From an uncultured Chloroflexia bacterium (GTDB lineage Bacteria; Chloroflexota; Ktedonobacteria; Ktedonobacterales; JADMIN01), in assembly GCA_963718915.1 (NCBI GenBank), contig CAVRAI010000004.1:420001-452000 (forward strand): a stretch of 32,000 bases of DNA. Direction: 5' to 3'. Both the position numbers and the translations under genes were made by a program. The notes beneath the pieces were generated by a model. The model did not search any database and was not told the DNA's origin. It was given only the letters and a program-made list of their open reading frames with translations. Positions within the stretch are counted from its first letter, which is position 1. Every line of letters starts with the position of its first letter. Shown here in pieces: positions 622 to 31,555 of the stretch.

Positions 622-2001
622 CTACATGATATAGCCACTGGCATCGAAGAGGACATGTGTCACGGTACCTGCCGGCATATCGACCTTGATATTCATCTGC
701 CCACTGTTATCGAGCCCGACGATCACGCCGTTGGCAATGATCTGGCCGCTGGCGAAGTTGATCGAGCTGGTGCCAGGCAGGGGCGCGCTGGCCGGATAGA
801 GGCGCAGGTCGCCGCCGCCAGTGGGTTGTACCACGGTGACGTTGCCCACCACGCCGATTGCGCCGTTTGGCACTTCGATGGAGCCAACCAGGACACCCGT
901 GACCGGGAGTGTATGCACCGAGCCGGAGGCCCAGGGGGTATGGGAGGTGCGGGTATCGAGCAGGCGAATTGGGGCAGACAACAAACTCATGATCCCAGTG
1001 TTGCCAGCATCCACCGTGAGTACCTTGTGCCATGTGCCCGGCGAACCAGACAAAACGCAGATGTAGAGGTCGCCGTTGTTATCGCGAATCTGCTCGCCGA
1101 TGAGGTAAGAGCCACTGGTAGGCGCGCCGACGAATCCGGACAGGTTCTGTAGCAGTCGCCCGGTCCCTATGGCGACGATATCAATACCTGTAACACTGAG
1201 GCCTACCACGCCGAAGCCCGAGTCAGTTGCTCCATACACTCCAACAGAAGAGCTGCCGGTTGCGCTTCCGGACACACCGACGGCATCCACTCCGGCAGAG
1301 CCAGCGACACCGATAGCAAAGGCGCCAGTGAGAGCTGTGCCGTATACACCATAGGCAGTGTTCCCCGACGTGGCGTTACCGGCGGCTCCTAAAATGCCTG
1401 TGCTATCATCATTGCCGATCGACACCTCGAAGGCGGTTGGCGTTGCTTCGCCGCCATTATAGGTGAGCTGAGTCAGATGTTCGGCGGTGTTGCTGGAACT
1501 GCCCAGCGTCAGTGTTCCGCCATCGGCGGCATGGGCCGTCTGCGTGGTGAGGGCTGCACCTCCGGTGGCGGCCAGGGCAGCGGCGGCGCCGACCCCGCCC
1601 CACTTGAGCAGCGTCCGCCGACTCGTCGTGCCAGTCGTGCCAGTCGTGCCAGTCGTGCCATTGGCTTGCGCGTGGGAAGGCTCGCTCGGCTCCTCAACAG
1701 TATCGTCTGGAGTATCATCTGGCGACACTGGCGCATGTGGAAGCGATTCCTGCGGGGAAGAGGTCACTATTGGCTGGGGTTGCGTCCCCGCCAGGGCTGT
1801 GCGTAGCATCACAATCTGTGCTGCCATCTCCTCGCGTAGCGCTGATAATTCCTGCTCGTGAGCGGCGCGCAACGCTGCCAACTCTTGCTGAAGCGCGATG
1901 GCCTCACTCTCGTACGATGCGGAAGACGCGGACTGGTTTGCAGGGGAATCGACCGGGGAAAGAGGTGATGGGGAAGAACCGTCTTGGCGCTGCGTTGTCA
2001 T
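622..2001 (-). CDS. Exported Gly-rich repeat protein: coiled-coil N-region, internal Tat-like signal, Gly/Ser/Thr repeats, C-terminal beta-rich domain
   Basis: ORF 622..2046. Preferred start is ATG 2001 (GGAGG 5 nt upstream; the 2046 start would translate through that SD). Heptad-like AIALQQELAALRAAHEQELSALREEMAAQIVML, then SRRTLLKWGGVGAAAALAATGGAALTTQTAHA/AD (S-R-R-x-L-L-K + h-region + AxA). C-terminus DLRLYPASAPLPGTSSINFASGQIIANGVIV...HVLFDASGYI resembles a domain common in actinobacterial cell-surface proteins. Confidence 0.7.
   Translation of the reverse strand: MTTQRQDGSSPSPLSPVDSPANQSASSASYESEAIALQQELAALRAAHEQELSALREEMAAQIVMLRTALAGTQPQPIVTSSPQESLPHAPVSPDDTPDDTVEEPSEPSHAQANGTTGTTGTTGTTSRRTLLKWGGVGAAAALAATGGAALTTQTAHAADGGTLTLGSSSNTAEHLTQLTYNGGEATPTAFEVSIGNDDSTGILGAAGNATSGNTAYGVYGTALTGAFAIGVAGSAGVDAVGVSGSATGSSSVGVYGATDSGFGVVGLSVTGIDIVAIGTGRLLQNLSGFVGAPTSGSYLIGEQIRDNNGDLYICVLSGSPGTWHKVLTVDAGNTGIMSLLSAPIRLLDTRTSHTPWASGSVHTLPVTGVLVGSIEVPNGAIGVVGNVTVVQPTGGGDLRLYPASAPLPGTSSINFASGQIIANGVIVGLDNSGQMNIKVDMPAGTVTHVLFDASGYIM
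1627..1660 (-). repeat. 9-bp tandem repeat (CGTGCCAGT x about 3.8) encoding (GTT)4 immediately N-terminal of the RR motif
   Basis: Direct reading of 1621-1660: cgtg ccagtcgtgc cagtcgtgcc agtcgtgcca. Confidence 0.85.
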
Positions 2002-2314
2002 GCAACCTCCTGCTTTCAAGCTGTCTCTGCGGCTTACTGTCGCCAATCCAGGGCGTGCCGGAAATGAAGTGAAATGTCCTTACATAACACTTCATGCTGT
2101 GATATGTCAGCCATGCGCGTGGAGCATAGCATAGCTGAGCTATTGTGTATAGACGTGCGAGAAGTCTGGAAGTATCGCAACACGCCTGTTTGGCATATCT
2201 CTGATAGCCAGACGGATAGCGACTGATGCATAGAGCGGTACATAGCGTGTCGAGAATCACCCCGCCTCACTGCTGCGGGCATGCCGCGCGAGACGGCGGC
2301 GGTTTGTCTGGTTG

Positions 2315-8032: not shown

Positions 8033-8620
8033 TTGAACGCCAGGAAGAAGCGCGAGATTATCATCGTGGACTATCGTCCCGAGTGGCCCGATGAATTCGC
8101 GCAGATTGCGGTGGGGCTTCGTGGCGCGCTCGGCGCCTTAGCGCTGCGTATCGACCACATTGGCTCGACCTCGGCGCCGGGATTGTCGGCGAAAGATATC
8201 ATCGATGTCCAGGTGACGGTGGCTGAGCTTACACACGATCTCGATGCGCCATTCGCGCGAGCAGGCTGCGCGCGAGTCGTGGAGATCGATCACGATCATG
8301 TCCCACCGACAATGACAGACAGCGATCACAACTGGCGGAAACTCTACTATCAGCCTCCCGCGGAGATGCGCCCGGCACATATCCACGTGCGTCAGGCGGG
8401 CAGCGCCAATGGGCGCTATGCGCTGCTTTTCCGCGATTACCTGCAGACGCATCCCCTGGCAGCGCTGGCCTATGCCCAGGTGAAGGTGGCGCTGGCGCGG
8501 AAGGATTCCTACGACTGGGATCTGTACTACGATGTCAAGGATCCCGTCTGCGATATCATCATGGCGGGCGCAGAGGATTGGGCCGCGCAAACAGGTTGGC
8601 GCATCGAGCACTATGCCTGA
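8033..8620 (+). CDS. GrpB family protein
   Basis: IIIVDYRPEWPDEF and IDHIGSTSAPGLSAKDIIDVQVTV are GrpB hallmarks. I prefer TTG 8033 (AGGAG 8 nt upstream) over track start 7961, which overlaps rarA. Confidence 0.85.
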   Translation: MNARKKREIIIVDYRPEWPDEFAQIAVGLRGALGALALRIDHIGSTSAPGLSAKDIIDVQVTVAELTHDLDAPFARAGCARVVEIDHDHVPPTMTDSDHNWRKLYYQPPAEMRPAHIHVRQAGSANGRYALLFRDYLQTHPLAALAYAQVKVALARKDSYDWDLYYDVKDPVCDIIMAGAEDWAAQTGWRIEHYA

Positions 8621-8655
8621 GGCTGCGCCAACGAACCGATGTGATGGAGCGCGCT

Positions 8656-9351
8656 ATGCCGACGGTTCAGGTCGACGACATCCAGATGTATTACGAGCTA
8701 CGCGGCGAAGGTCAGCCGTTAGTGTTGATCCTTGGCATGGCGATTGACGTATCCGAGGTCGAGCCGATCATCCGCTGGTTTGCCGAGAGATACCGCGTGC
8801 TGGCGTTCGATAATCGCGGCGCGGGCCGCACCGATAAACCTGATATCCCATATACCATCGAGATGATGGCGAACGACACTATTGGACTCATGGACGCGGT
8901 GGGCATCGAGCGCGCACACGTCCTCGGCATCTCACTGGGCGGGCGTATCGCGCTGGCGCTGACACTCGCGCATCCGGAGTGTGTCGAGAAGCTGGCGCTC
9001 GTCTCCACCTCCGCGCGAGTTCTCCCGCGAAGCTGGCGGTTCCACGCGCTCGGTCTCCTGTCCAGCGTGCCGATGTTTCAGGGTAAGTACCCACAGCCGC
9101 GCTATGCCTTCGTGCGCCAGCGTGACGCATCCACCCTGTTTAACTGCACCGCCAGGCTATCTGAAATACAGGCGCCCACGCTCATCATGCACGGAAGGAA
9201 CGACAGAACCGCGCCGTTCGCGCTGGCTGAGGAGATGCAGCGCGGCATACGCGGCTCGAAGCTGCTCCCCTTCGCGGGCGGCCATCTCTTCTTTCTGATG
9301 CGCGAGCGCCAGCGCTTCCTCGACGCCACCGCCGATTTTCTGGGACGCTGA
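8656..9351 (+). CDS. Alpha/beta hydrolase
   Basis: MPTVQVDDIQMYYELRGEGQPLVLILG, nucleophile elbow GISLGG. ATG 8656 has GGAG 6-7 nt upstream; alternatives are 8644 and 8578. Confidence 0.85.
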   Translation: MPTVQVDDIQMYYELRGEGQPLVLILGMAIDVSEVEPIIRWFAERYRVLAFDNRGAGRTDKPDIPYTIEMMANDTIGLMDAVGIERAHVLGISLGGRIALALTLAHPECVEKLALVSTSARVLPRSWRFHALGLLSSVPMFQGKYPQPRYAFVRQRDASTLFNCTARLSEIQAPTLIMHGRNDRTAPFALAEEMQRGIRGSKLLPFAGGHLFFLMRERQRFLDATADFLGR

Positions 9352-9371
9352 AACAACGGCCCTTTGTCCTG

Positions 9372-9644
9372 TTATCCCCGTGCCAAGGACGTCTTCCGAG
9401 AACGCACGAACAGCACGGCAAGGCATGCGATGAAGACCCAGATGAAGAAGAGCGGCGGCGCCACAAACACGCTCACGACGGACGGCGAGAAAAAGCCATC
9501 CTGGGCAAACGCTCCAGCGGCGACGAGGTGCGCCGGTGCGTTGATGGGTGGCAAGTCAGCGATGAACATGTCTCCCAGCGCGTACAGGATAACGCTTGTG
9601 ATGCCAGCAAGCGCGGTGAGTCGTCTCAGCGATACATCTGTCAT
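9372..9644 (-). CDS. Small hypothetical membrane protein (90 aa)
   Basis: AGAGG SD and 2-3 hydrophobic spans. Lies downstream of, and co-oriented with, the SnoaL-like gene. Confidence 0.45.
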   Translation of the reverse strand: MTDVSLRRLTALAGITSVILYALGDMFIADLPPINAPAHLVAAGAFAQDGFFSPSVVSVFVAPPLFFIWVFIACLAVLFVRSRKTSLARG

Positions 9645-9684
9645 GACGAACCTCTGGGTTGGAATATGCCGTCACTTCGGAGCG

Positions 9685-10131
9685 CTACGGTCGCCCCGGA
9701 AGCGGGATTATGCCTAACTGCAACATCATGGGGAGATCATCGCGCACTGCCCAGTGTTCGGCCAGTTTGCCACCCGCGACCCTGAACCAGTGTGTCTGCC
9801 ATCCGGCGAAATGTCTGCCAGTCGGCGGGATTGTACCGTTGAACGGGCCAAGATTTGTCCCCTCGGAGAAGACACGGCACGAGACCAGGTCTCCTTCGGC
9901 AATGGCCATTTCGACGCGCATCCGCATATCCGGAAACTGCGCGTGTAGCCACTCGGCGGCGCTCCGGGCGTGCTGTGGCCCCTGAACGCTACCCGGCTCC
10001 GACTGGCCAAACGGCGCGACGGCATGCTCGATATACTGCCCCTCCATGATCTCGTCGCACACCGCGTAGTTCTGCCTGGTGAGGATCTCTTCAAAGAATC
10101 GCTGAGCCAGGATCTTGTTCGCGTCAGACAT
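9685..10131 (-). CDS. SnoaL-like ester cyclase family protein
   Basis: ANKILAQRFFEEI...PPTGRHFAGWQTHWFRVAGGKLAEHWAVRDDLPMMLQLG is the typical ester-cyclase pattern; GGGGAG SD. Confidence 0.85.
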   Translation of the reverse strand: MSDANKILAQRFFEEILTRQNYAVCDEIMEGQYIEHAVAPFGQSEPGSVQGPQHARSAAEWLHAQFPDMRMRVEMAIAEGDLVSCRVFSEGTNLGPFNGTIPPTGRHFAGWQTHWFRVAGGKLAEHWAVRDDLPMMLQLGIIPLPGRP

Positions 10132-10204
10132 GACAATCTCCCCCGATGCTCACTATGGTGGGCATCGTGTGTGTTCTTGATATTTTTCCGGCCTGTAAAC
10201 CAAC

Positions 10205-11041
10205 TCACTCAACGTCAAGCTGGTGTTGAATCTCGGTGAGGTAGTCTGAAGGGTCACAGTGATGCATCGGCCCGCGATGATAAAGAAATCGCCACGTGCC
10301 GCTCAGGTGATAGCCGTTTTCTACCGCCCAGCGCTGGAGCAGCAGATATTTCTCGTTGAGCGTATCGTAGTCGCCCTGATGCATGTAGACTGCCGCCGTT
10401 TCGATGGCGGGCACTTCACGTAGGGTGAGGGTTCCAACATCACCGAGTGAGACGCTAGGAGTGTGTGTCGGGTCGACAGGCGCCGCCGTTTCGGTATCAA
10501 GATAGTCGCCACGAAACTCGTCCTCATAGAAGATGGAGACGGGCGCTCCGCCCGTCCAGCCGATATCGCCCCTCTTGACCGCCGACTCGATGCTGCGACC
10601 TACGACCTCACGCTCTTGCCGCGACCGAAATGTTCGTCGCAGCGTCAGCGCGGAGAATGGCTCGATACGTTTGACGACGATGTCTAATGTCGATGCGATA
10701 CCCTCCTGTTCAATCTGCCGCAGACGAAACTCCACCTGCGCCAACCGCGCCTGCTCCTCGCGTACCCGCTGGCGCAACTCAGCCTGCTTCAGCCGATACA
10801 TGCCCCGTATCTGATCTACTGTTAAATCTTCAGACAACAATTGGGCGATCTCATCCAGCGACAGACCTAATTCTTTCAGCGCGATAATCGTGTGCAGGCG
10901 TGGGAGCTGGTCGAGCGTGTAGTAGCGATAGTTGGTGAACGGGTCTGTCTGTGATGGTTTGAATAGCCCCACCTCGTCGTAGTGGTGCAGCGTTTTGACA
11001 GTTACCTGACTCAAACGCGAAAATTCGCCGACTTTGAGCAT
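10205..11041 (-). CDS. MerR family transcriptional regulator with GyrI-like effector-binding domain
   Basis: N-terminal MLKVGEFSRLSQVTVKTLHHYDEVGLFKP (MerR HTH), a coiled-coil linker, and a C-terminal GyrI-like half; GGGAGG SD. Confidence 0.9.
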   Translation of the reverse strand: MLKVGEFSRLSQVTVKTLHHYDEVGLFKPSQTDPFTNYRYYTLDQLPRLHTIIALKELGLSLDEIAQLLSEDLTVDQIRGMYRLKQAELRQRVREEQARLAQVEFRLRQIEQEGIASTLDIVVKRIEPFSALTLRRTFRSRQEREVVGRSIESAVKRGDIGWTGGAPVSIFYEDEFRGDYLDTETAAPVDPTHTPSVSLGDVGTLTLREVPAIETAAVYMHQGDYDTLNEKYLLLQRWAVENGYHLSGTWRFLYHRGPMHHCDPSDYLTEIQHQLDVE

Positions 11042-11086
11042 CGCTACCTCCCGTGACCATGTGTGGGGCCGCCTTCATGCATAAGT

Positions 11087-11114
11087 TTGCACCCTCCGGT
11101 TAGCGGAGGGTCAA
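11087..11114 (-). promoter_or_regulatory. Candidate MerR-type operator/promoter: TTGACC-N19-CAAACT with perfect 8-bp inverted repeat in the spacer
   Basis: ACCCTCCG (11091-11098) / CGGAGGGT (11104-11111). On the minus strand this reads TTGACCCTCCGCTAACCGGAGGGTGCAAACT, about 45 nt upstream of the merR ATG. The 19-nt spacer is the MerR-family signature. Confidence 0.45.
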
Positions 11115-11188
11115 GGGGGTATGCGGAGATTGGGTGAAAGTCGGGCAAAAGTCAGGTGACAGCGATGCCCAGCAAGGCGTAGCCCCGA

Positions 11189-12238
11189 CTATTTTGTCGT
11201 GTCGATGACGATTTTGCCGAAGACCTCGCGCTCTTCAAGCAGGCGTTGCGCCTCGGCAATCGATTCCAGCGGCAGCGTCCGGGCGATCACCGGGTGGAGC
11301 TGGCCATTCGCCACCAGTCGCAGTACCGTGGCGAGATCGGTGCGCGTGCCACCGTAGGAGCCAATCAGCTTCAGCTCTTTGGCAAAGAGCGTCCAGATGT
11401 TGGTCGTGCCCTCGTTGCCGGTCGTCGCGCCACAGGTGACCAGCCGCCCCTCGCGCGCGAGACACGTAATGCTCGCGGCCCAGGTTGCCGCGCCGATATG
11501 CTCCACGACCACCGAGACGCCGCGTTTGCTCGTCAGCTTGCGCACCTCCTGCGCGAAATCAAGCTCGTTGTAGTTGATGACATTGTCCGCGCCGAGTCGT
11601 TGCGCGTGCTCCATCTTCTCACGGCTACCCACCGTTGCGATGACTCGCGCTCCCGCCAGCTTCGCGATCTGAATCGCCGCGCTGCCCACGCCACTGCCAC
11701 CCGCCTGCACCAGCACAGTCTCGCCCGGCTGGACCTTTGCTCGCACGATGAGCATGCGCCAGGCGGTAATCATTGCCAGGCCCACCGCCGCGGCAGAGGC
11801 CGCGCTCACTCCGTCTGGCGCCGGGACGAGGCTCGACGCGGGCACAACGACGTATTCGGCGAACGCGCCCTGGCTCGCCAGCCCAAGGATGTCGCCGCGG
11901 ATGCACATCGTCTCCTCGCCCGCGAGGCAGAACTCACACTGCCCGCAGAAGAGATATGGCGCTATGGCGGCAAGACTGCCCACAGACACTGGCTCCGTCG
12001 CGACACCCGGCCCATAGGCCACGACCTCGCCCGCCGCCTCAGAGCCGGAGGTGTGGGGCAGCTTGACGGGCGTTCGGCCGGTGCGGGCGTAGATATCCAG
12101 CCGGTTGACGCCACATGCCAACACGCGCACCAGCGCCTGTCCGTTGCCGGGCTGCGGGCGCGGCAAATCGCCAAATCGCAGCACATCCGTGCCGCCGGTC
12201 TCTTCGAAGAAAACACCCTTCATGGTATCCGCTGTCAT
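11189..12238 (-). CDS. Zinc-type alcohol dehydrogenase / NADPH:quinone oxidoreductase (MDR superfamily)
   Basis: MKGVFFEETGGTDVLRFGDLPRPQP and the Rossmann motif VLVQAGGSGVGSAAIQIAK. Start is 12238 or 12223 rather than track start 12286. Confidence 0.9.
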   Translation of the reverse strand: MTADTMKGVFFEETGGTDVLRFGDLPRPQPGNGQALVRVLACGVNRLDIYARTGRTPVKLPHTSGSEAAGEVVAYGPGVATEPVSVGSLAAIAPYLFCGQCEFCLAGEETMCIRGDILGLASQGAFAEYVVVPASSLVPAPDGVSAASAAAVGLAMITAWRMLIVRAKVQPGETVLVQAGGSGVGSAAIQIAKLAGARVIATVGSREKMEHAQRLGADNVINYNELDFAQEVRKLTSKRGVSVVVEHIGAATWAASITCLAREGRLVTCGATTGNEGTTNIWTLFAKELKLIGSYGGTRTDLATVLRLVANGQLHPVIARTLPLESIAEAQRLLEEREVFGKIVIDTTK

Positions 12239-12475
12239 GTGGCAGGCATCCTTTTCCGCAACGCAAGATGTCGCGACTAGCCCCAACGTCGGTACCTCGC
12301 GGTCACTTGACCAGAGTATACCGCGCCTGATGTCGTCTCTATTATGGCAGTGTCGAGCAATGAACGAGAGTCAGCCGATTTGACGCGCCTGAATCGTGCG
12401 GCGATAATGGGCGAACGAGAGGTAGCCCGTCACACCATGCGTGCGGCGGGTGATGCAGTGAAGGGAGCGCAGCTC

Positions 12476-13211
12476 ATGATGCGACAATTGCGCGGAACCG
12501 GATGGCGCGGGATTCGATGGAGCGCCATGCTGGGACTTGCCATACTGATGACGATAGGTATTCTGGCGGGATGTAGCGGGCCATCCGCGCCGACCTCCAC
12601 CATATTGCTCGCGGCGGCGCAGAAGACCTTCAACGACGCCAAGACATTTCACTTCACGCTGAAGGCCGATCACCTTGGCCCCAAGCCAGCGGGTGATCCT
12701 GGTCTAAGCAGTCTCTCGGCAGCTGATGGGGATGTGCAGCGGCCTGACCGGCTCAGCACCAACGGTACGGTTGATTTGGGCGGGCTTACCGTCTCCACGC
12801 AGTTGGTGATTATTGGCGATAAGGCATGGTATCAAAACCCATTGACAGGCTCGTTCGATGAGGATGACTCGTATGCCAGTTTCGTGACACTTTTTGACCC
12901 GACGAAGGGGCTGGGAGTGGCTCTGGCCGCGTTACGCAATCCCTCGACGCCCAGCGACGGCAGCGCCAATGGCACGCCCTGCTGGAAGATCAGCGGTGAC
13001 GTGGATACCGCCGCTTTGAGCGCGCTCCTTGGGGAGTGCCGCGGGATCCGCCAAGGCGCCTCACGCTACCGTCTGTATCGGCAAGAGCGACAACAAGCTT
13101 TATTCCATCGTGCTCGTCGGCCAGGTGATCGCGGGCGACACCGACCAGACAACGCGCACCATCTATATCTCGAAGTATGATGCGCCCGTAAATATTCAGC
13201 CGCCAGCCTAG
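12476..13211 (+). pseudogene. LprG/LppX (LppX_LprAFG)-like lipoprotein, frameshifted at a G4 run (13031-13034)
   Basis: AAGGGAG SD before ATG 12476; lipobox GILAG/C. Frame A runs to ...DTAALSALLG, then degenerates into an Arg-rich tail. Frame B (track ORF 13029..13211) gives SAAGSAKAPHATVCIGKSDNKLYSIVLVGQ...TIYISKYDAPVNIQPPA, the family-typical C-terminus. Frame B is closed upstream by TGA 13017-13019, so the shift lies within 13020-13040. Confidence 0.75.
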
Positions 13212-24345: not shown

Positions 24346-27232
24346 CTACTCCAAAACATCGAGATTGCAGCCCAGTTGCGCCGCCCGCTGGCGCACCCGC
24401 GTCGCCGCAGCGTCCTGCCCCAATCGCGTGTACATCTCCACCGCCTGGGCGAGCAACTGGCAGCCCTCATCTGTCTTGCGCTGATGTCGCAGCAGGAACG
24501 TCCCAAGCCTTCTTGTATTGGCGCTGAAAGCGGTGCCAGTTGCAGACGCAAGGCAATCGCCAGCGACTGACGATAGCTATGCTCCGCCGCATCGAGGTCG
24601 CCCTCCGCCTCCTGCACAGTAGCCAGATTGAACCAGGCCACGCCTTCGTCGCGCTGGTCATGCACCGCCTGCATGATGGCGAGGTAGCGGGTGTAGTTGG
24701 TCTTGGCGGTCGCCAGATCGCCCTCTTGCCGCGCCAGGTCGCCGAGCAGGGAGAGGGCCACGCCTTCGCCGCGCTGGTCATGCACCGCCTGCATGATGGC
24801 GAGGAAGCGGGTGTAGTTGGCCTTGGCGGTCGCCAGATCGCCTTCCTGCATCGCCAGGTCGCCGAGCAGGGAGAGGGCCACGCCTTCCCGCGCTGGTCAT
24901 GGACTTCACGAAATTCATCGACGCTGGCTGCCGCCATCGCCTTCGCACTCAGGAATCTGGCCAAGTTGCTGTAACAGCGTCGCGTAATGGCCATGCAAGA
25001 TTGCCGCATCCCTGACCGTCGCATCGTTGCGTTCAGCGGCAACCCGGCGCTCAGCCGCAGCCACCGCCGCCGGGAGATATTCTTCGCGCGCCGCTGTCCG
25101 GCTATGAGTCGTTCCAGTAGTTGGCGCTGCCCTGGCAGAGGCGGATCAGCAGCGTGTCGTTGCTGGCGGCGAGCGCCCAGGCAAGCGCGCCAAGGATGTT
25201 GCGCTCGTCGTTTCCAAAGCGGCGTCGCTTCGTGTCATTGCTATAGTCCGCGTACCACTGCGCCACCGCCTGGGAGAGCGCCGCGCGGTCATCGCTGGCG
25301 ATTTGGCTGAAGCGGTCGCGGGCGTCGGTGTAGACGAGCGGGTGCAGCCTGACGCGCTCGCGGTCGCTCTGCTCTGGCATCGCCTCGTCGAGGCCGGGAT
25401 CGGCCAGCCGCAGGGTAATCAGCGCCTTCAGGCTGCGCTCCGCTATCGCCTCATCCGCCGCATCATCCTCCGTCTCATCGTCGCTGGCGACCAGCGCGCC
25501 GATGGAGAGCGCGGCCTCGCGTCCCACATCGCCGGTGGCGAAGGCGCCGAGCGCCACGAAGAGCCGCTGGGCGGGCGCATCGAGCGCGGCGAAGCTCGAA
25601 TCGAGGACGTAGCGCACCGCCTCCGCGCCATCTTCCAGCAGCAGCGCCTTAGTGGGGTTCGCCTCCAGTTCCGCCGCCAGCCGATCCAGCGGCCGACCCA
25701 GGCTGGCCGCGTTGGCCGCCTGGAGCTTCACCGCCAGCGTGTGGCGGCCTAGCAGGGTCACGATGGTTGTCACATCGCGCAGTTCGGCGGCGGTCAGGTC
25801 GAGCGCCGCGCCGCGCCCGTAATACGACGCGAAGAGGTCGAGCGCCTCGGGCAGCGGCAGCACGTCCAGTTTCACACGCGCCTCCCGTGGGATTTCGGGC
25901 AACTCCGCGCGCGAGGTCAACAGCAGCGCCACCCCCGCCGCGCGCAGCGCCTGCGCCACCTCGCCGACATGCGGCCCCGGCTCCATATTGTCCAGCACGA
26001 CCAGCGCCCGCTTCTCGCCGAGTATCTGGCGCGCCCGGTCGCCAAGCGCCGCCAGGTCGGTGTCCTCCGGCTCGCTCCGTCCCGTGGTGAAGCGGGCGAG
26101 AATCTGCCTAAGCAGCCGTACGGGATCATGCTCATCCCTGGCGACCACCACCGCGATGCCATCGGGGAAGGCGTTGGCCACCATCAGGCGGCGAATCACC
26201 TCGGTGGCGAGCGCCGTCTTGCCGATGCCCGCCAGCCCATTGGTCGAGGCGATGCCCGCGATGCCGCCACCGTTCGCGCCAGTGAGCAGCGCCACCACCC
26301 GGTTCGCGTCCTCCTCACGCCCGATAAAGCGCTCGATGCCGGGCAGCGCCCCGATGTCGAACGGCGGCCCCACCTCCACTGGCGGCGCGGGGATCGTGCT
26401 GCCATGGCGGAGGGCCACGAGCAGCGTCGCGAAGGCGGCCTCGTCGGCAACCTCCAGCCGATAGTCCACATACTGCGCCAGCGTCACCAGCGGCGGTACC
26501 GCGCAGGTCTGGCGCAGCACTGGCACGACAATCTTGCCGTCTTTGACATTGGCGCTATTCTTCTGGCTCCACGCCAGCCCGATCTCATCATGCACCCACT
26601 TCGAGGCGGCGGATTGCGAGGTCAGGATGACGAGAAAGATTTCGCGCGTGGTCAGCTCGCGGACAATGTCATCTTGCCAGTAAGTGGCTAGGCGCGATGC
26701 CACCCTCCCAGGTTCCCTCGGCGCCGGGGCCGCCCCGCGAGTCATACCAGGCGTCGAAGCCCGCAGCGCGCAGGCGCTCAAGCAGCGCCTCGCCAAAGGC
26801 GTTGTCGCCGTTGCTGTGGCTGATGAAGACGCGCCGCCGGTCGCTGCCTGGGACGGGCGCGGACACGGAGGCTGGCGCGGGCGCGACCGACGACGGCGCG
26901 GTGGAGACAGTAGACGGGGCGGCAGGGGTTACAGCGGAGGCTAGCGGTTTGGGTCGCAGTAGAGAAGGCGAAGCGCGCAACGCCAGGACGAAGACGCCGC
27001 ACATCAACACGAAGAGCAGCGCGTCGGCGGGTGGCGCTGGCGGCAGACCAGGCAGCGCAATCGCATGGAGGACGGCGGAGAGCGGCGACGGTGGATTGGT
27101 CGTATCTGGCGCCGCGCCGCGCACGTTCCAGACGAGCAGAGCGATATAGCCGAGCAGAACCAGCCACGTGAGGCCAAAGGCAAGCCAGGATGTGAACCGC
27201 ACCCAAAATGACGAATGATTGCCCGTTTTCAT
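24346..27232 (-). pseudogene. 2xTM - TIR - NB-ARC (STAND NTPase) - TPR protein gene with at least 5 frame disruptions
   Basis: ATG 27232 (GGGAGG 6 nt upstream). TM1 WLAFGLTWLVLLGYIALLVW and TM2 ALLFVLMCGVFVLAL. TIR: RRVFISHSNGDNAFGEALLERL...SKWVHDEIGLAW. NB-ARC: Walker A GLAGIGKTALA, Walker B ALVVLDNME, LLLTSR, GRHTLAVKL. TPRs run to a reconstructed C-terminus ...AVEMYTRLGQDAAATRVRQRAAQLGCNLDVLE with stop at 24346-24348. Frame changes are needed near 26690-26740, 25100-25112, 24947, 24887 and 24500-24505. Confidence 0.8.
24637..24899 (-). repeat. Near-identical 120-bp tandem units encoding TPR pairs
   Basis: Unit A (24661-24780) versus unit B (24781-24899) shows about 6 substitutions and 1 missing base (ccttcGccgcg versus ccttcccgcg at about 24887). 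They encode EGVALSLLGDLA(R/M)QEGDLATAK(T/A)NYTR(Y/F)LAIMQAVHDQRG. Confidence 0.85.
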
Positions 27233-27427
27233 GGCGCCTCCCAACGTGGTTGTATAAACGACTTGCGCAAAGTATGGCAGATTTCGTCACTGCCCGCAAG
27301 GCATCAGTTTCCTGTGAACGATCAGCGCGCCAGCAGAAAGGACTGGACAGGCCCAGTAAAATGGAGAAGCAATCTATCGCAGGAGATGATGTGTATTCTG
27401 GCAAGCGGATAGGATAGGGTCAATCGG

Positions 27428-27595
27428 ATGGATCAGGTGAATGTGGCCACTAGCACAGGTCTCATGTCGCCGCAGCCGCCCTCGCCCGCGCCGCCGCAGC
27501 CTGCCTATATGCTGCTTACGCCCGCCGGAGCAACCGACGCCGAGGCTGTCGAGACGGAACTCACTAAGTTGCTCTTCATGCCGAAAAAGAAGTAA
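27428..27595 (+). CDS. Candidate small ORF (55 aa; or 43 aa from ATG 27464)
   Basis: Below the ORF-track cut-off. MDQVNVATSTGLMSPQPPSPAPPQPAYMLLTPAGATDAEAVETELTKLLFMPKKK. The 3' two-thirds has strongly G/C-biased third positions. AGGA/AGGG lie 8-13 nt before ATG 27428. No homology recognised. Confidence 0.25.
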   Translation: MDQVNVATSTGLMSPQPPSPAPPQPAYMLLTPAGATDAEAVETELTKLLFMPKKK

Positions 27596-28848
27596 CAGGT
27601 AGCACTTGGGGGCTGATGCGTCCGACAACCATTGCAGCCAGCACCTCATCTGCGTCGACTTGCTCAGTGGGGGTGAGCGCACCTAGCGGGACGCAGGCCA
27701 TCGCAGCGAGTTTGCCCGGTTCCAGCGTGCCTAACTCATCCGCCAGGCCAAGCGCGTCGGCTCCTCCGAGTGTTGCCAGTCGTAGTAGCTCGGTAGGTGT
27801 CGGCGTCTCGCCAGCCGCGCTATGTAGCTCATGCGACGCGATAGCGTCGTCCCAGACCGCGAGGGAGGGACTACTCGCCAGGCTATCGGTGCCGAGCGCC
27901 AGCCGGACGCCCGCCGCGCGATACAACTCATAGGGTATGCGCCCGCAGTGCAGCCGTGAGTTACTGCGCGGGCAATGCGCCACCGCCGCATTCGCATGGA
28001 GAATGCGTGCCACATCATCCGTGTCCACCTGGATGCCGTGGGCCAGCAGCGGACGCGCCGCCAACACGCCTAACTGGTCGAGATACGCGATAGGAGAGAC
28101 GCATGGCGCGCGCATTGGATGGATCGGCCAGCCAGCGCCGGGATAGAGCAGGTCGGCAATCGGGCCAGTGGCGTCGCGCAGGAACTGGGTCTCGGCGGGC
28201 GACTCGGCGGCGTGGATGGTGAGCGGGACATCCTCGGCGTGACACCACTCGGCTGTGGCTCGCAGTAGTTCGGCGGAGACGGTATACGGCGTATGCGGCG
28301 CGAGGCCGAAGCGGATGCGGTCCTGTGGATACTCGCGGCGCCACTGTTCGATCTGCCGCTGGCCCGCGCGCAAAAGGTCGTCCGCCCGCTGCCGGGTCGG
28401 GGCTGAGCAACTCGAAGTAGACAACGCCGTGGAGGCCGCTCTCGACCAGCGGACGCACGCTCTGGCCGAACGTGCATATCTCGCCGACCGCCACCGTGCC
28501 ACTGGCGACCATCATTTCGACGCCCGCATAGGCAGCCCGCTCGAAATCGTCCGACGTGCGCGTTCGGCTGTAGCTCACCAGCGGATAGATCCACTCGATC
28601 AGCGGCAGGTTATCGGGAACGTGCCCGGCGTGGTGGGTTAGCTCCAGATGTGTGTGGGCGTTGACCAGCCCCGGCAGCAGCGCCCGCTCGCCCAGGTTCA
28701 CCACCCGCGCGCCGGGATAGCGCTCGCGCAGGTATGCGGCCGTCCCCACAGCGACGATGCGCCCAGCCTCGGCGGCGACCGCGCCATCGGGAATCGGCTC
28801 CGCGCTCACCGGGAAGACGTGGCGGGCAGTGTAAAGGGTGATGGTCAT
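27576..28848 (-). pseudogene. Amidohydrolase, ATZ/TRZ-MtaD (nucleoside/nucleobase deaminase-like) family, one frameshift near 28392-28402
   Basis: ATG 28848 (GGAAGG upstream). PGLVNAHTHLELT, IHAAESPAETQFL, HCPRSNSRL, LGTDSLASS. Frame 1 ends meaningfully at ...VVYFELLSPDP; frame 2 continues RQRADDLLRAGQRQIEQWRREYPQDRIRFGLAPHTPYTV. The shift sits in a GGG/GGGG-run region. Confidence 0.8.
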
Positions 28849-29009
28849 GTGGTCGTAACTACCTTCCGTTCGGCGATGTAGCTGCCTGGTGATTGTACCA
28901 TTGTCTGTCTCCACCACAGCTGCCTGTTCCCCACGCCGATAGGCAAATCATCAGGCAAATATACGCTCCTGGGTACACATCAACTCGGCGAGATATACGC
29001 CAACATGTC

Positions 29010-29038: not shown

Positions 29039-29100
29039 AGCAGCAAGCCTGCCATACTGTGTGGAATCACGATTTCACTGTGCTGAGGGATTTTCACGAT

Positions 29101-30789
29101 ATGTCGTTCAAGACCGCGTTCATGAGCCATGCTCATGTCGACAATGCCACATGCGACCCGTATGCGAAGGCGCTACGCGAACGAGGCGTTCACCTCTACT
29201 ATGATCGCGAAGAACCGATGGAATTGGACGGCAGACTCCTCAGCGAGGTTCTGGTGAGAGAGCTGAGGCAAGCCCAAACCCTTATCCTGATGGCTACTCC
29301 AGCGGCTGTAGCGTCTCAATGGGTGATCGAGGAGTATAACTTCTTCCACACGCTCATGATGCGCGACGCCACGCGACAGATTATCCCAGTGATGATCGAG
29401 CAGTGTGAACTCCCTGGCTTCTTGCCGTCGCGGGGACGGATCGACGCGACCTCGCTGTCTCCAGATGAATTAATTGATCGGTTGATAAAAGCGCTGACGG
29501 TGAAGGACGCGCCAGACGACGCCACAACTCCTCCATATGTACCACGGCCCGCGCCAATTACGCCCACGCTGGAGTCACCGCTTAGTTCAGGCACAAATCC
29601 ATCTCCAGCGCCACAGCCTGGAACTCCGCCATCGGCTAAGCCACAACCCACGCCAAAATCGCGCCCATCGCCTCAACGCGCTCCGAAGTCTTCCACTCCT
29701 CCGCTCAAACGCAGGCGTAGAATCGCGCGGCGTGTGTTCTTGACAGTGGGTACAACTGGTATCCTCGCGGCCACTGCTGGTGCGTTCTTCTGGCTTCACA
29801 ACGATCCATCGGCGTTGCCACCATTCTTTACGCAGCCGACCGCGACGCCGCAACCGACGGCCACGCCGCAGCCGACCGCGACGCCGCAGCCAACCGCGAC
29901 GCCGACCGCGATTAGCGCATACCATGGACATTCTGCCGCAGTCAATAGCGTCTCATGGTCACCTGATGGACGATTCATCGCTTCGGCCAGTGACGATCAC
30001 ACGGTACAGGTATGGGATGCGACAACAGGCGTCAAACAGAACACCTTTTTGGGTAGCCCTGGCGCGGTATTGACGGTGGCGTGGTCACGTGATGGGTCTC
30101 TCATCGCAGCGGCGGGCGATGATGATTTTGTAGAGGTGTGGCAGGCAGGCAGTAATATCTTTGCCCCTTTGCTTATCTATCGTGGTCACACGAGTGCGGT
30201 GAACTCGGTTGCCTGGGCGCCACACGGGGCGCGTATCGCCTCGGCAAGCAGTGACAAGATTGTGGAGGTGTGGGACGCGGTGACAGGCTCGCGCATCTGC
30301 ACCTGTATCGGACACGCGAACGCGGTGAACGGCGTGGCCTGGTCGCCTGACGGAACACGCATTGCCTCGGCCAGCGCCGACAAATCGGCGCAGGTGTGGG
30401 ATGCGTCAAGGGGAAGCCATGTCTATACCTATCATGGTCACACGGACTGGGTGAATGCGGTGGTCTGGTCACCGGACAGGACGCGCATTGCCTCGGCGAG
30501 CAATGATAAAACCGCGCAGGTGTGGGATGCGACGACGGGAGCCAACCCCTACGTCTACCGTGGACACCTGGATTATGTGCTTTCGGTCGCCTGGTCGCCC
30601 GACGGTCGGCGCATTGCCTCGGCCAGCTATGACACGACGGTGCAGGTATGGGATGCGTCTGATGGCGCCCACGTCTATACCTACAATGGACACTCAGCGC
30701 CAGTGAATTACGTTGCCTGGTCGCCCGATGGGACACGCATTGCCTCGGCCAGCGCTGACAATACCGTACGGATATGGAGTCCCCAATAG
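29101..30789 (+). CDS. TIR domain - Pro-rich linker - Tat-like signal-anchor/TM - (PTATPQ)4 - 7-bladed WD40 propeller protein
   Basis: I prefer ATG 29101 (GAGGGA 10 nt upstream; aligns with paralog start M..KTAFMSHAH) over track start 29059. TIR: KTAFMSHAHVDN...LILMATPAAVASQWVIEEYNFF. KRRRRIARRVFLTVGTTGILAATAGAFFWL follows, then seven GH...WSPDG.RIASAS.D...VWDA repeats. Confidence 0.9.
   Translation: MSFKTAFMSHAHVDNATCDPYAKALRERGVHLYYDREEPMELDGRLLSEVLVRELRQAQTLILMATPAAVASQWVIEEYNFFHTLMMRDATRQIIPVMIEQCELPGFLPSRGRIDATSLSPDELIDRLIKALTVKDAPDDATTPPYVPRPAPITPTLESPLSSGTNPSPAPQPGTPPSAKPQPTPKSRPSPQRAPKSSTPPLKRRRRIARRVFLTVGTTGILAATAGAFFWLHNDPSALPPFFTQPTATPQPTATPQPTATPQPTATPTAISAYHGHSAAVNSVSWSPDGRFIASASDDHTVQVWDATTGVKQNTFLGSPGAVLTVAWSRDGSLIAAAGDDDFVEVWQAGSNIFAPLLIYRGHTSAVNSVAWAPHGARIASASSDKIVEVWDAVTGSRICTCIGHANAVNGVAWSPDGTRIASASADKSAQVWDASRGSHVYTYHGHTDWVNAVVWSPDRTRIASASNDKTAQVWDATTGANPYVYRGHLDYVLSVAWSPDGRRIASASYDTTVQVWDASDGAHVYTYNGHSAPVNYVAWSPDGTRIASASADNTVRIWSPQ
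29833..29910 (+). repeat. 18-bp tandem repeat x4.3 encoding (QPTATP)n
   Basis: cagccgaccgcgacgccg / caaccgacggccacgccg / cagccgaccgcgacgccg / cagccaaccgcgacgccg / accgcg. Confidence 0.85.
30232..30786 (+). repeat. 126-bp phased WD40-coding repeats with conserved nucleotide core
   Basis: CGCATTGCCTCGGC recurs at 30358, 30484, 30610 and 30736 (exact 126-bp phase). A diverged copy lies at about 30232. Confidence 0.8.
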
Positions 30790-30901: not shown

Positions 30902-31357
30902 TCATTGGTACCGCTCTGAGAGCGTGAGTCCGGGCCGTTCGTCATCCCAGGCCATCGAGCTGATTTTCCAGCCGGTGGGCGTCGCGATGAACTGTATTAC
31001 GATCACGCCACGACCCTCGATCGTCGTCCCCGCACTGAGGCCATGTTTCTCATATATGCTAAAGCGGTGGGCAACGTTGCCAAATATTTCTGTGATCTCC
31101 GCCGTTTCAGATTCTCGCAAGCTTTTGAGTTCGCCCGACTCAACCATGCGTTGGCGTGGCTCGATGAACTGGCGGACGGTATAGATCTCTGGCGAGGACG
31201 AACTGTTCTTGATGATCTGTCCGCTCTCGATAAAGATGTCGTACAGATTTACGTACGGTGGAGTCTCACCGTCATCGAACGAGACGGCCCGGTAGAACGC
31301 AGCCGTCAGGGTATCTATCTCGGCCTTACTGCCTGATTCGTCGTCGTCAATTTTCAT
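30902..31357 (-). CDS. Hypothetical protein, NTF2/SnoaL-like fold (inferred)
   Basis: ATG 31357 with AAGGGA 7 nt upstream. The track start 31522 would run through the promoter block of the neighbouring gene. EIDTLTAAFYRAVSF...GRGVIVIQFIATPTGWKISSMAWDDE resembles the DUF4440/NTF2-like pattern. Confidence 0.6.
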   Translation of the reverse strand: MKIDDDESGSKAEIDTLTAAFYRAVSFDDGETPPYVNLYDIFIESGQIIKNSSSSPEIYTVRQFIEPRQRMVESGELKSLRESETAEITEIFGNVAHRFSIYEKHGLSAGTTIEGRGVIVIQFIATPTGWKISSMAWDDERPGLTLSERYQ

Positions 31358-31462
31358 ATAACATCCCTTACCTGCCAGCACCAGCCTCGTCGAAGCTGTC
31401 AGTCTGTCTTGTGAAGGCCTCGCCGTTGCGCACCTAAATGCCCAAAGTCGCTCCGTTGCATC

Positions 31463-31491
31463 TATACAAGTAGCAGCATCTCCTATATGAT
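31463..31491 (+). promoter_or_regulatory. Promoter-like TATACA-N17-TATGAT (paralogous to 29010-29038)
   Basis: TCTATACAAG at 31461-31470 and TATGAT at 31486-31491, about 65 nt upstream of ATG 31556. Confidence 0.45.
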
Positions 31492-31555
31492 TACAACACG
31501 GAACCATTGTTCGCCAGATCAAGATGCGCTATCAAGCCGCTGAGGATGTAACGCA

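Follow-up and report, generated by a model that had tools for sequence, protein, structure and literature searches.

A TIR-anchor-WD40 protein of Ktedonobacterales predicted to join an external propeller to a cytoplasmic TIR domain through a twin-arginine-flanked span

The animal Toll-like and interleukin-1 (IL-1) receptors are type I proteins in which a leucine-rich repeat (LRR) or immunoglobulin (Ig) ectodomain is joined to a C-terminal TIR domain that is a pure adaptor. The bacterial TIR systems known to us sense intracellular events: phage proteins, cyclic nucleotides or guide-target duplexes. Mycobacterium tuberculosis PknD, a kinase-transmembrane (TM)-NHL propeller protein, offers an analogous layout with a kinase at the N terminus. 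In Planctomycetota, the WD40 domains that stand behind a kinase and a TM helix have already been predicted to be periplasmic by DeepTMHMM (PMC11032199), so an outside WD40 domain is not new in itself. Here we describe a gene at positions 29101..30789 (+) of a 32,000-nucleotide stretch of DNA, hereafter the window, which covers positions 420,001 to 452,000 of contig CAVRAI010000004.1 (assembly GCA_963718915.1) from an uncultured, filamentous bacterium of soil type in the Ktedonobacterales (Chloroflexota). An initial annotation had described the product as a TIR-TM-WD40 protein that combines an inverted Toll-like-receptor logic with a signal-anchor resembling those of the twin-arginine translocation (Tat) pathway. 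Our analysis of sequence and structural models favors, with some reserve, a single-pass type II receptor-like protein that has a cytoplasmic NADase-type TIR domain, a twin-arginine anchor and an external seven-bladed WD40 propeller.

The coding sequence is complete and intact (562 aa plus stop) and lies inside an open reading frame (ORF) listed at 29059..30789. We place the start at the ATG at 29101 because the orthologue P0365 opens MPYKSAFMSHAHADN and the query protein MSFKTAFMSHAHVDN; a GAGGGA motif can be read 10 nt 5' of this ATG. The query aligned end to end with P0084, P0089 and P0002 at 41-49% identity. An orthologue that is 49% identical over its full length (P0084/P0365) is held by a second locus, L005 (DATBIB010000055), where it adjoins the same amidohydrolase and DnaE region; hence the gene is real and no chance ORF. 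An exact-sequence look-up of the 562-aa protein found no identical record. A word-indexed search with the N-terminal 243 aa returned no matches, the Pro-rich linker having probably swamped it, and an exhaustive HMMER search with aa 1-240 found 2,419 relatives, of which 147 reached E<=1e-10. About 10 relatives share the TIR-anchor-WD40 build. When a 7-sequence alignment was used as a profile to scan genomes, all of the matches were metagenome-assembled genomes of Ktedonobacterales (Chloroflexota). Every element that had been listed for 29101-30789 proved to be real, in a gene product of 562 aa.

The TIR domain, the predicted cytoplasmic NADase-type effector, occupies aa 1-134 (29101..29502, +). 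Pfam TIR_2 (PF13676) matched aa 7-128 over positions 2-121 of its 122; the score of 53.3 bits (E=5e-14) clears the cut-off of 28. An AlphaFold2 (AF2) model of aa 1-134 (pLDDT 87.4, pTM 0.85), with a flavodoxin-like alternation of strands and helices, superposed in Foldseek on AbTir (7uxu; TM-score 0.84, rmsd 2.0 Å) and on the SPARTA TIR (8spo; 0.84), and also on SARM1 and plant TIRs. Both the profile and the model bear out the proposal of an N-terminal TIR module. A profile of the closest 7 relatives matched AbTir (7uwg/7uxu, 8g83), 7uxr, PdTir (3h16) and TcpB/BtpA at E=3e-8 to 9e-6, and in the PDB profile alignment W74 and E78 coincided with the Trp and Glu of AbTir 'WTNYEL'. Glu78 (codon 29332..29334, +) is the candidate catalytic glutamate; it is the second E of WVIEE, lies in the helix that follows the third strand and is invariant in alignments A1 (15 sequences) and A2. 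Across the 15 relatives, S9, D14, C18, G29, S72, V75, E78, R92, P105 and D115 are invariant, and H10, H12, N15 and W74 nearly so. The initial annotation had assigned the glutamate to a W-x-x-E motif. A catalytic-type Glu is indeed retained, but not at that spacing, since Glu78 sits four residues past the Trp. By every criterion that can be computed the domain reads as an enzymatic TIR, and NADase activity is predicted. It shares the TIR_2 family, the fold and the Trp...Glu motif with the TIRs of AbTir, PdTir and TcpB (BtpA) (7uxu, 7uwg, 3h16, 4c7m), at only 18-23% sequence identity. Those TIRs are soluble or secreted, with coiled-coil or no partner domains, whereas the query TIR would be tethered to the membrane and coupled to a propeller.

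The propeller, the predicted extracytoplasmic sensor, lies at aa 265-560 (29893..30780, +). PF00400 matched it in 7 stretches (E=1.4e-76), with 7 local hidden Markov model matches, and the full-length AF2 model, in which the TIR domain is confident too, has 28 strands at pLDDT 85-98 (aa 270-559); the seven WD40 blades proposed earlier are all present. The blades are 53% identical to each other, with variation at a few positions, and the underlying DNA has a 126-nt period. In three kinase relatives (P0045, P0028 and P0036), the WD40 blades are 71-85% identical mutually and some are identical. This suggests that the repeats have recently turned over or evolve in concert, as those of fungal NLR WD40 sensors do. 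Kinases without a TM segment (P0051, P0048, P0064 and P0008) carry propellers 43-52% identical to that of the query. Since such close propellers occur there, a propeller fold of this type would seem to be at home in the cytoplasm.

TIR domain and propeller are joined by a Pro-rich, disordered tether, a basic cluster, a hydrophobic span and a second linker. The tether (aa 135-202; 29503..29706, +) has no secondary structure in the AF2 model (pLDDT 30-37), and both its length and its sequence differ among orthologues in the 15-sequence alignment. It is about 65 aa long when taken as the Pro-rich part at pLDDT below 50 (aa 135-199), which corrects the 80 aa first given. The basic cluster KRRRRIARR (aa 203-211; 29707..29733, +) ends in R210-R211 of A-R-R-V-F-L, and both of these arginines are invariant in alignment A3. 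The span itself, VFLTVGTTGILAATAGAFFWL (aa 212-232, 21 aa; 29734..29796, +), is marginally hydrophobic and is a predicted signal-anchor with N-in/C-out orientation; no other part of the protein reaches a mean Kyte-Doolittle value of 1.6 over 19 residues (here 1.69). Seven K/R fall within the 15 residues before the span; the 15 after it hold no K/R and one Asp. HNDPSALPPFF follows, and then the (QPTATP)4 linker, an 18-nt tandem repeat at 29831..29904 (+; Tandem Repeats Finder: period 18, 4.1 copies, 87% matches).

Which side of the membrane does each domain face? The best reading is N-in/C-out, because of the strong positive-inside bias, the Pro/Thr linker after the span and the domains that relatives carry on either side of it. 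Kinase, STAND NTPase and TIR domains need cytoplasmic nucleotides, which argues for a cytoplasmic N-terminal side. In TIR relatives, the same anchor is followed by a PQQ-like propeller (P0225) or by FGE-sulfatase domains (P0212, P0220), which argues for an external C-terminal side. This is the topology that had been proposed from the positive-inside rule, and the charge asymmetry about a single hydrophobic span agrees with it.

A search with the full-length protein returned mostly Ktedonobacterales Ser/Thr kinases with a C-terminal WD40 domain, including P0045 of Thermogemmatispora argillosa. The kinase-WD40 junction matches the junction of the TIR protein (e.g., ...RGISRRTVLLGLGGLVVVGGGG...W). 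From the proteins retrieved we took every one with 5-8 blades in which a hydrophobic window lies <=70 residues ahead of the first blade. This cassette set (n=69) consists of about 45 kinases, about 10 TIR proteins and a remainder of others; the comparison set comprised 22 other TM-bearing WD40 proteins, most of which have 9-14 blades and a helix 60-100 residues upstream. A twin arginine (RR) was present in 67/69 cassette proteins and in 14/22 of the comparison set. The counts were 62/69 versus 5/22 for [ST]RR and 63/69 versus 3/22 for [STA]-R-R-x-φ-φ, where φ is hydrophobic, and sequences with only KK, KR or RK were found in 0/69 and 3/22, respectively. Conservation among the 69 proteins extends to G at +6 and L at +7. 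Their mean net charge is +3.4 in the N-side flank and +0.9 in the C-side flank, and in 51 of them K/R follows the span within 12 residues.

The RR-anchor does not depend on the kind of cytoplasmic domain before it: it stands behind kinases, TIR domains and NTPases of the nSTAND1 and AAA_16 types, and in P0062 behind a polytopic membrane domain. On sequence comparison, anchor and propeller together appear to be a mobile sensor cassette that is homologous to the one in the local receptor kinases. In Ktedonobacterales kinase-TM-WD40 proteins such as P0045, the propeller is 45-63% identical to that of the query, and the SRRxφφ-G/A-rich helix and the predicted topology are the same; the cytoplasmic output is a kinase there and would be a TIR in the query. 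A twin-arginine anchor signature is not described for kinase-TM-WD40 proteins, the Planctomycetota set included, in the accessible part of PMC11032199. Six proteins from the full-length search (P0101, P0111, P0032, P0041, P0016 and P0062) have the RR-anchor and 7-10 WD40 blades. Except in P0062, these follow nSTAND1/AAA_16 STAND-type NTPases, an arrangement that would amount to an NLR-like protein spanning the membrane. The cassette of P0062, behind its polytopic domain, is placed as in known dual Sec/Tat proteins.

Might the anchor be a Tat signal? In dual Sec/Tat proteins, experiments have shown that the final helix owes its Tat dependence to a preceding twin arginine, relatively low hydrophobicity and positive charges after the helix (PMC5449189). 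The predicted ΔG of such helices is about +0.2 to +1.8 (Tooke et al. 2017, PMC5449189), and the substrates predicted to use both Sec and Tat include one Ktedonobacter protein (PMC5449189). All three features are found in the cassette family, and the first two in the query. On a simple Hessa sum, a crude scale and not the full ΔG predictor, the cassette RR-anchors have a mean of +1.13 (84% above 0) and the query +1.21. The non-RR anchors of sister TIR proteins, which precede FKBP or unknown domains, range from -0.3 to -6.2; the cleavable textbook Tat signals of the same lineage have a mean of +4.5. The Tat consensus is S/T-R-R-x-F-L-(K) immediately ahead of the hydrophobic region; the sequence I-A-R-R-V-F-L-T of the query contains RRxFL, with Ala at -1 and no Lys. 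Its RR lies at aa 210-211, behind the folded TIR domain and not near the N terminus. Hence, the anchor is not a classical Tat signal peptide and would be at most an internal signal-anchor, as in dual Sec/Tat proteins.

The cassette shares with Rieske signal-anchors and dual Sec/Tat proteins (PMC5449189) the twin arginine before a low-hydrophobicity final helix, and most of its members also share the positive charges after the helix and the globular C-terminal domain that follows. In contrast to those proteins, whose signals stand at the N terminus or after Sec-inserted helices, the query would carry its signal behind a soluble part of about 210 residues (TIR plus tether); its cargo has no known cofactor, and curated Tat profiles are not reached. 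We ran these profiles on 45-54-residue anchor segments. The P0084 anchor best matched the Rieske Tat signal-anchor model PF10399, at 19.7 bits (E=6e-4), below the cut-off of 24. A strict pattern, [ST]RRxφφ plus an uncharged hydrophobic stretch, had 11 matches in 412 kb of Ktedonobacterales DNA. TIR-like WD40 proteins with an RR-anchor accounted for 8 of the 11 (six distinct proteins); the query has Ala ahead of its RR and was not matched. No clearly N-terminal Tat signals were seen in the 412 kb of related DNA, and internal textbook signals turned up instead. In the literature searched, coverage of which was incomplete, no twin-arginine anchor behind a soluble domain is described.

The initial annotation had also raised Tat export of a folded propeller. 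This idea is strengthened, though not proven, by an RR that is nearly invariant across the cassette family and coupled to low hydrophobicity; in the query, the residue before RR, the lack of charge after the span and the curated profiles speak against it. For the cassette family, the chances that the anchor is a Tat-dependent internal signal-anchor exporting a cofactor-less propeller look roughly even on the sequence evidence, and for the query protein itself they would be somewhat lower. More tentatively still, the [S/T]RR-anchor and the seven-bladed WD40 domain may define an unrecognized class of Tat substrates, in which an internal signal-anchor behind a large, folded and soluble domain of the cytoplasm (TIR, kinase or STAND NTPase) exports a pre-folded, cofactor-less propeller.

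How might such a protein work? The TIR domain, with its catalytic-type Glu78, would hang in the cytoplasm on the disordered tether of about 65 residues. The twin-arginine-flanked, marginally hydrophobic helix would serve as the membrane anchor, and the Pro/Thr linker would present the propeller outside. With about even chances, the anchor would be handled post-translationally by Tat, such that the propeller folds in the cytoplasm and crosses the membrane folded while the TIR domain stays inside; the conserved [S/T]-R-R-x-φ-φ motif and the low hydrophobicity argue for this route. The propeller would bind an external, probably multivalent ligand: a phage, a cell-wall fragment or the surface of a neighboring cell. 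Binding would cluster the receptors, and the clustered, tethered TIR domains would self-associate, which is the switch in other TIR NADases. The associated TIRs might then deplete nicotinamide adenine dinucleotide (NAD+) or make an ADP-ribose-derived signal, and the affected cell of the filament would stop growing or die. What computation shows is the gene itself, the TIR fold with its Glu, the span with its charges, the seven blades and the conserved cassette; we infer the topology, the dependence on Tat, the ligand, the clustering and the NADase output.

Several observations weigh against this scheme. In the full-length AF2 model, the span was given a pLDDT of about 25 and no helix, aa 136-266 were without structure, the anchor was not resolved and no contact between TIR and propeller was seen; it is hydropathy scales that suggest membrane insertion. 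The query has Ala where Ser/Thr is expected before RR, and it lacks K/R over the 12 residues that follow the span, where Sec-avoidance charges would lie. Its anchor segment matched neither TIGR01409 nor PF10518 and reached only E=5.4 with PF10399, and its homologues stayed below threshold (P0084, 15.6 versus 16.7 on TIGR01409; P0089, 15.4 versus 22.7 on PF10518). We give this failure little weight because textbook signals in the same window also lack a TIGR01409 match. No tatA or tatC was seen in the available 32 kb of the genome. The RR could serve a juxtamembrane role other than TatC binding, since the 69 cassette proteins are homologous and G+6 and L+7 are conserved along with it. Finally, no defence island was found among the window neighbors, nor a conserved partner gene, and PADLOC gave only weak, generic ThsB-like TIR matches (E=4e-7 to 5e-6).

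Could an ordinary insertion route explain the same receptor? The span would then be a type II signal-anchor that is inserted co-translationally by the signal recognition particle (SRP), SecYEG and YidC. The SRR would be a positive-inside and juxtamembrane or TM-dimerization motif inherited with the cassette, and the propeller would fold outside, like those of the TolB, BamB or PknD type. A 21-aa span is long enough for this and passes the Kyte-Doolittle value of 1.6, and the sub-threshold Tat profiles of query and homologues and the lack of Sec-avoidance charges in the query fit as well. The conservation of G+6 and L+7 with RR implies that the whole helix is constrained and not a Tat motif alone. 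Moreover, the Planctomycetota kinases have their predicted periplasmic WD40 domains behind ordinary TM helices, and Tat goes unmentioned in the accessible part of that source (PMC11032199). However, any K/R would satisfy the positive-inside rule, yet RR is found in 67/69 proteins, KK, KR or RK alone in none, and Ser/Thr precedes RR in 62/69. The spans of the cassette family are systematically less hydrophobic than the non-RR anchors of sister TIR proteins, a property that makes Sec abort insertion (PMC5449189), and the propellers of the TM-less kinases speak for a fold at home in the cytoplasm. We regard Sec insertion as a possible account, though on balance a doubtful one. That the protein is cytoplasmic throughout, with a flexible or peripheral Gly/Ala/Thr-rich stretch, as in the soluble TIR-WD40 proteins of actinobacteria and cyanobacteria, seems to us very improbable. 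The missing AF2 helix at aa 212-232, the positive Hessa sum and the kinase-WD40 relatives without a TM segment would all suit it. It is opposed by the span being the only strongly hydrophobic window of 19-21 residues in the protein, with a nine-residue basic cluster before it and an aromatic belt (FFW) behind, by the conserved position of the span in 69 proteins with a Pro/Thr repeat linker after it, and by the use of the same anchor before PQQ-like propeller and FGE-sulfatase domains.

Perhaps the TIR domain is not an enzyme at all? It might instead be a non-enzymatic adaptor that, in the manner of a Toll-like receptor and MyD88, recruits another TIR protein through TIR-TIR contact. A candidate lies 1.8 kb away: a gene at 24240-27244 (-) encodes two N-terminal TM helices, TIR_2, NB-ARC and TPR repeats. 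Two of three tandem paralogues at locus L019 have degenerate TIR-like heads, which would suit scaffold or decoy roles. Against an adaptor, Glu78 and the SHAHxDN, S72 and W74 positions are invariant or nearly so in the subfamily, the conserved TIR positions align to catalytic AbTir, and the NB-ARC gene is absent from the syntenic L005. We consider the adaptor improbable. Because of that same absence, we rejected a conserved partnership with the TIR-NB-ARC-TPR gene, which was added to the region in this genome. The TIR of that gene is broken across two frames by an apparent frameshift near 26669-26796.

Gene order in the window is DnaE with an intein (-), TM-TIR-NB-ARC-TPR (-), amidohydrolase (-), TIR-TM-WD40 (+) and a small gene, here gene X (-). 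In L005 it is DnaE (-), amidohydrolase (-), gene X (-), TIR-TM-WD40 (+) and an MqnC/CofH-type radical SAM protein (-). As the L005 orthologue sits in a related neighborhood, the TIR-TM-WD40 gene appears to be an old resident of this chromosomal region. The contigs that encode P0084 and P0089 are 2-2.6 kb long and gave no neighborhood. The other window genes encode MFS transporters, a methyltransferase, MgsA, MerR, ADH, GNAT and a PrsW protease. A setting in a defence island, a possibility raised by the initial annotation, is not what we found: the neighbors are of the housekeeping type and the PADLOC matches weak. In Thoeris, ThsB lies beside ThsA; the query has weak ThsB similarity, and no ThsA-like gene is present in the window or in L005. 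It matches no complete Thoeris or other PADLOC defence system. We rejected membership in Thoeris, CBASS-TIR and SAVED-TIR, as PADLOC found generic TIR similarity only.

Some neighboring genes are broken. The amidohydrolase (27576-28917, -) is split over two frames that overlap at 28015-28502, and DnaE (19329-23780, -) is spread over three ORFs: PHP (23037-23780), polymerase (21221-23392) and HHH/OB (19329-21128). The occurrence of at least 3 frame breaks within 9 kb, the one in the TIR-NB-ARC gene included and even in an essential gene, suggests assembly indel errors rather than pseudogenes; the target ORF is intact. The DnaE intein is marked by an Intein_splicing match at aa 652-702 of ORF 21221-23392 (-) and by about 235 extra residues that open the next ORF. 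A 93-nt gap separates the two DnaE ORFs at the intein, and the L005 DnaE orthologue is one ORF of 1488 aa. Gene X (30902-31522, -, in the window; about 9361-9843, -, in L005) adjoins the TIR-TM-WD40 gene in both loci; it is downstream and convergent in the window, upstream and divergent in L005. It had no Pfam or PADLOC match, and its presumed homology between the two loci comes from similar antisense ORFs. At L019, positions 8535-12947 (+) hold the three tandem paralogues, each with a TIR-like head, an [S/T]RR anchor and a WD40 domain (8535-9968; 9983-11437, which is P0201; and 11424-12947). The degenerate heads are those of the two outer copies, which apparently lack the W...E motif. Such a tandem duplication would suit a diversifying receptor family.

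The window also holds a second family with an internal Tat-type signal. ORF 622..2046 (-) and a paralogue at 1-~570 (-), function unassigned, contain a textbook Tat signal, TSRRTLLKWGGVGAAAALAA..TAHA|AD. In both window paralogues a coiled-coil-like leader precedes the signal, which sits 95-140 residues into the protein; of 67 database homologues, all from Ktedonobacterales, 64 have the signal at aa 34-129 (median 98). The N-terminal leader, MTxQR...ALQQELxALRAAHEQEL, is conserved and coiled-coil-like. The textbook signal (SRRTLLK) had no TIGR01409 match in a scan that covered NCBIfam and not Pfam. The proteins of this family may be Tat substrates with a long cytoplasmic N-terminal extension. 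The conservation of the leader suggests that it is translated; if so, internal Tat-type signals placed after cytoplasmic regions recur in the lineage. Since the family carries textbook Tat signals, the organism likely has a working Tat pathway. If the novel Tat reading of the cassette is true, the second family, with its internal signals, would follow the same principle in a cleavable form.

How far does the comparison with animal receptors go? A repeat-built outside sensor, one pass and an inside TIR would be common to the query and the Toll-like/IL-1 receptors, and receptor clustering is the natural activation model for both. However, the query is predicted to be type II, with a WD40 ectodomain and an N-terminal TIR of the enzymatic bacterial type that has a catalytic Glu, and not an adaptor TIR. 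Its closest relatives are bacterial kinase-TM-WD40 receptors, and we found no evidence for common descent with the Toll-like receptor architecture. The 'inverted Toll-like-receptor logic' of the initial annotation can thus be kept as a functional analogy only. Its author knew of no characterized bacterial TIR system with this topology, and the searchable literature, which is incomplete, likewise yielded no TIR-TM-WD40 receptor. The parts are known, namely a TIR_2 domain of AbTir type, a canonical WD40 domain and a cassette homologous to that of receptor kinases; the combination, judged on sequence, appears to be new. An internal Tat signal-anchor that exports a cofactor-less propeller is potentially a further new element.

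To our knowledge, Tat-signal screening tools look at the N-terminal region, and Tat substrates with an internal signal would therefore be missed systematically. The twin-arginine anchor bears on whether Tat accepts a signal behind a folded N-terminal domain and whether it exports cofactor-less repeat proteins. Because the cassette is present in cultured Thermogemmatispora (P0045), it is within reach of experiment. If our reading is true, an external sensor would be wired to a TIR domain by one membrane pass, and surface recognition would be coupled directly to NAD+-based death or arrest. The logic of animal Toll-like receptors would then have been reached independently in bacteria. If the novel Tat reading holds too, Ktedonobacterales would possess a family of true transmembrane innate-immune-type receptors, and its TIR version would be the first bacterial receptor with an outside sensor and an inside TIR.

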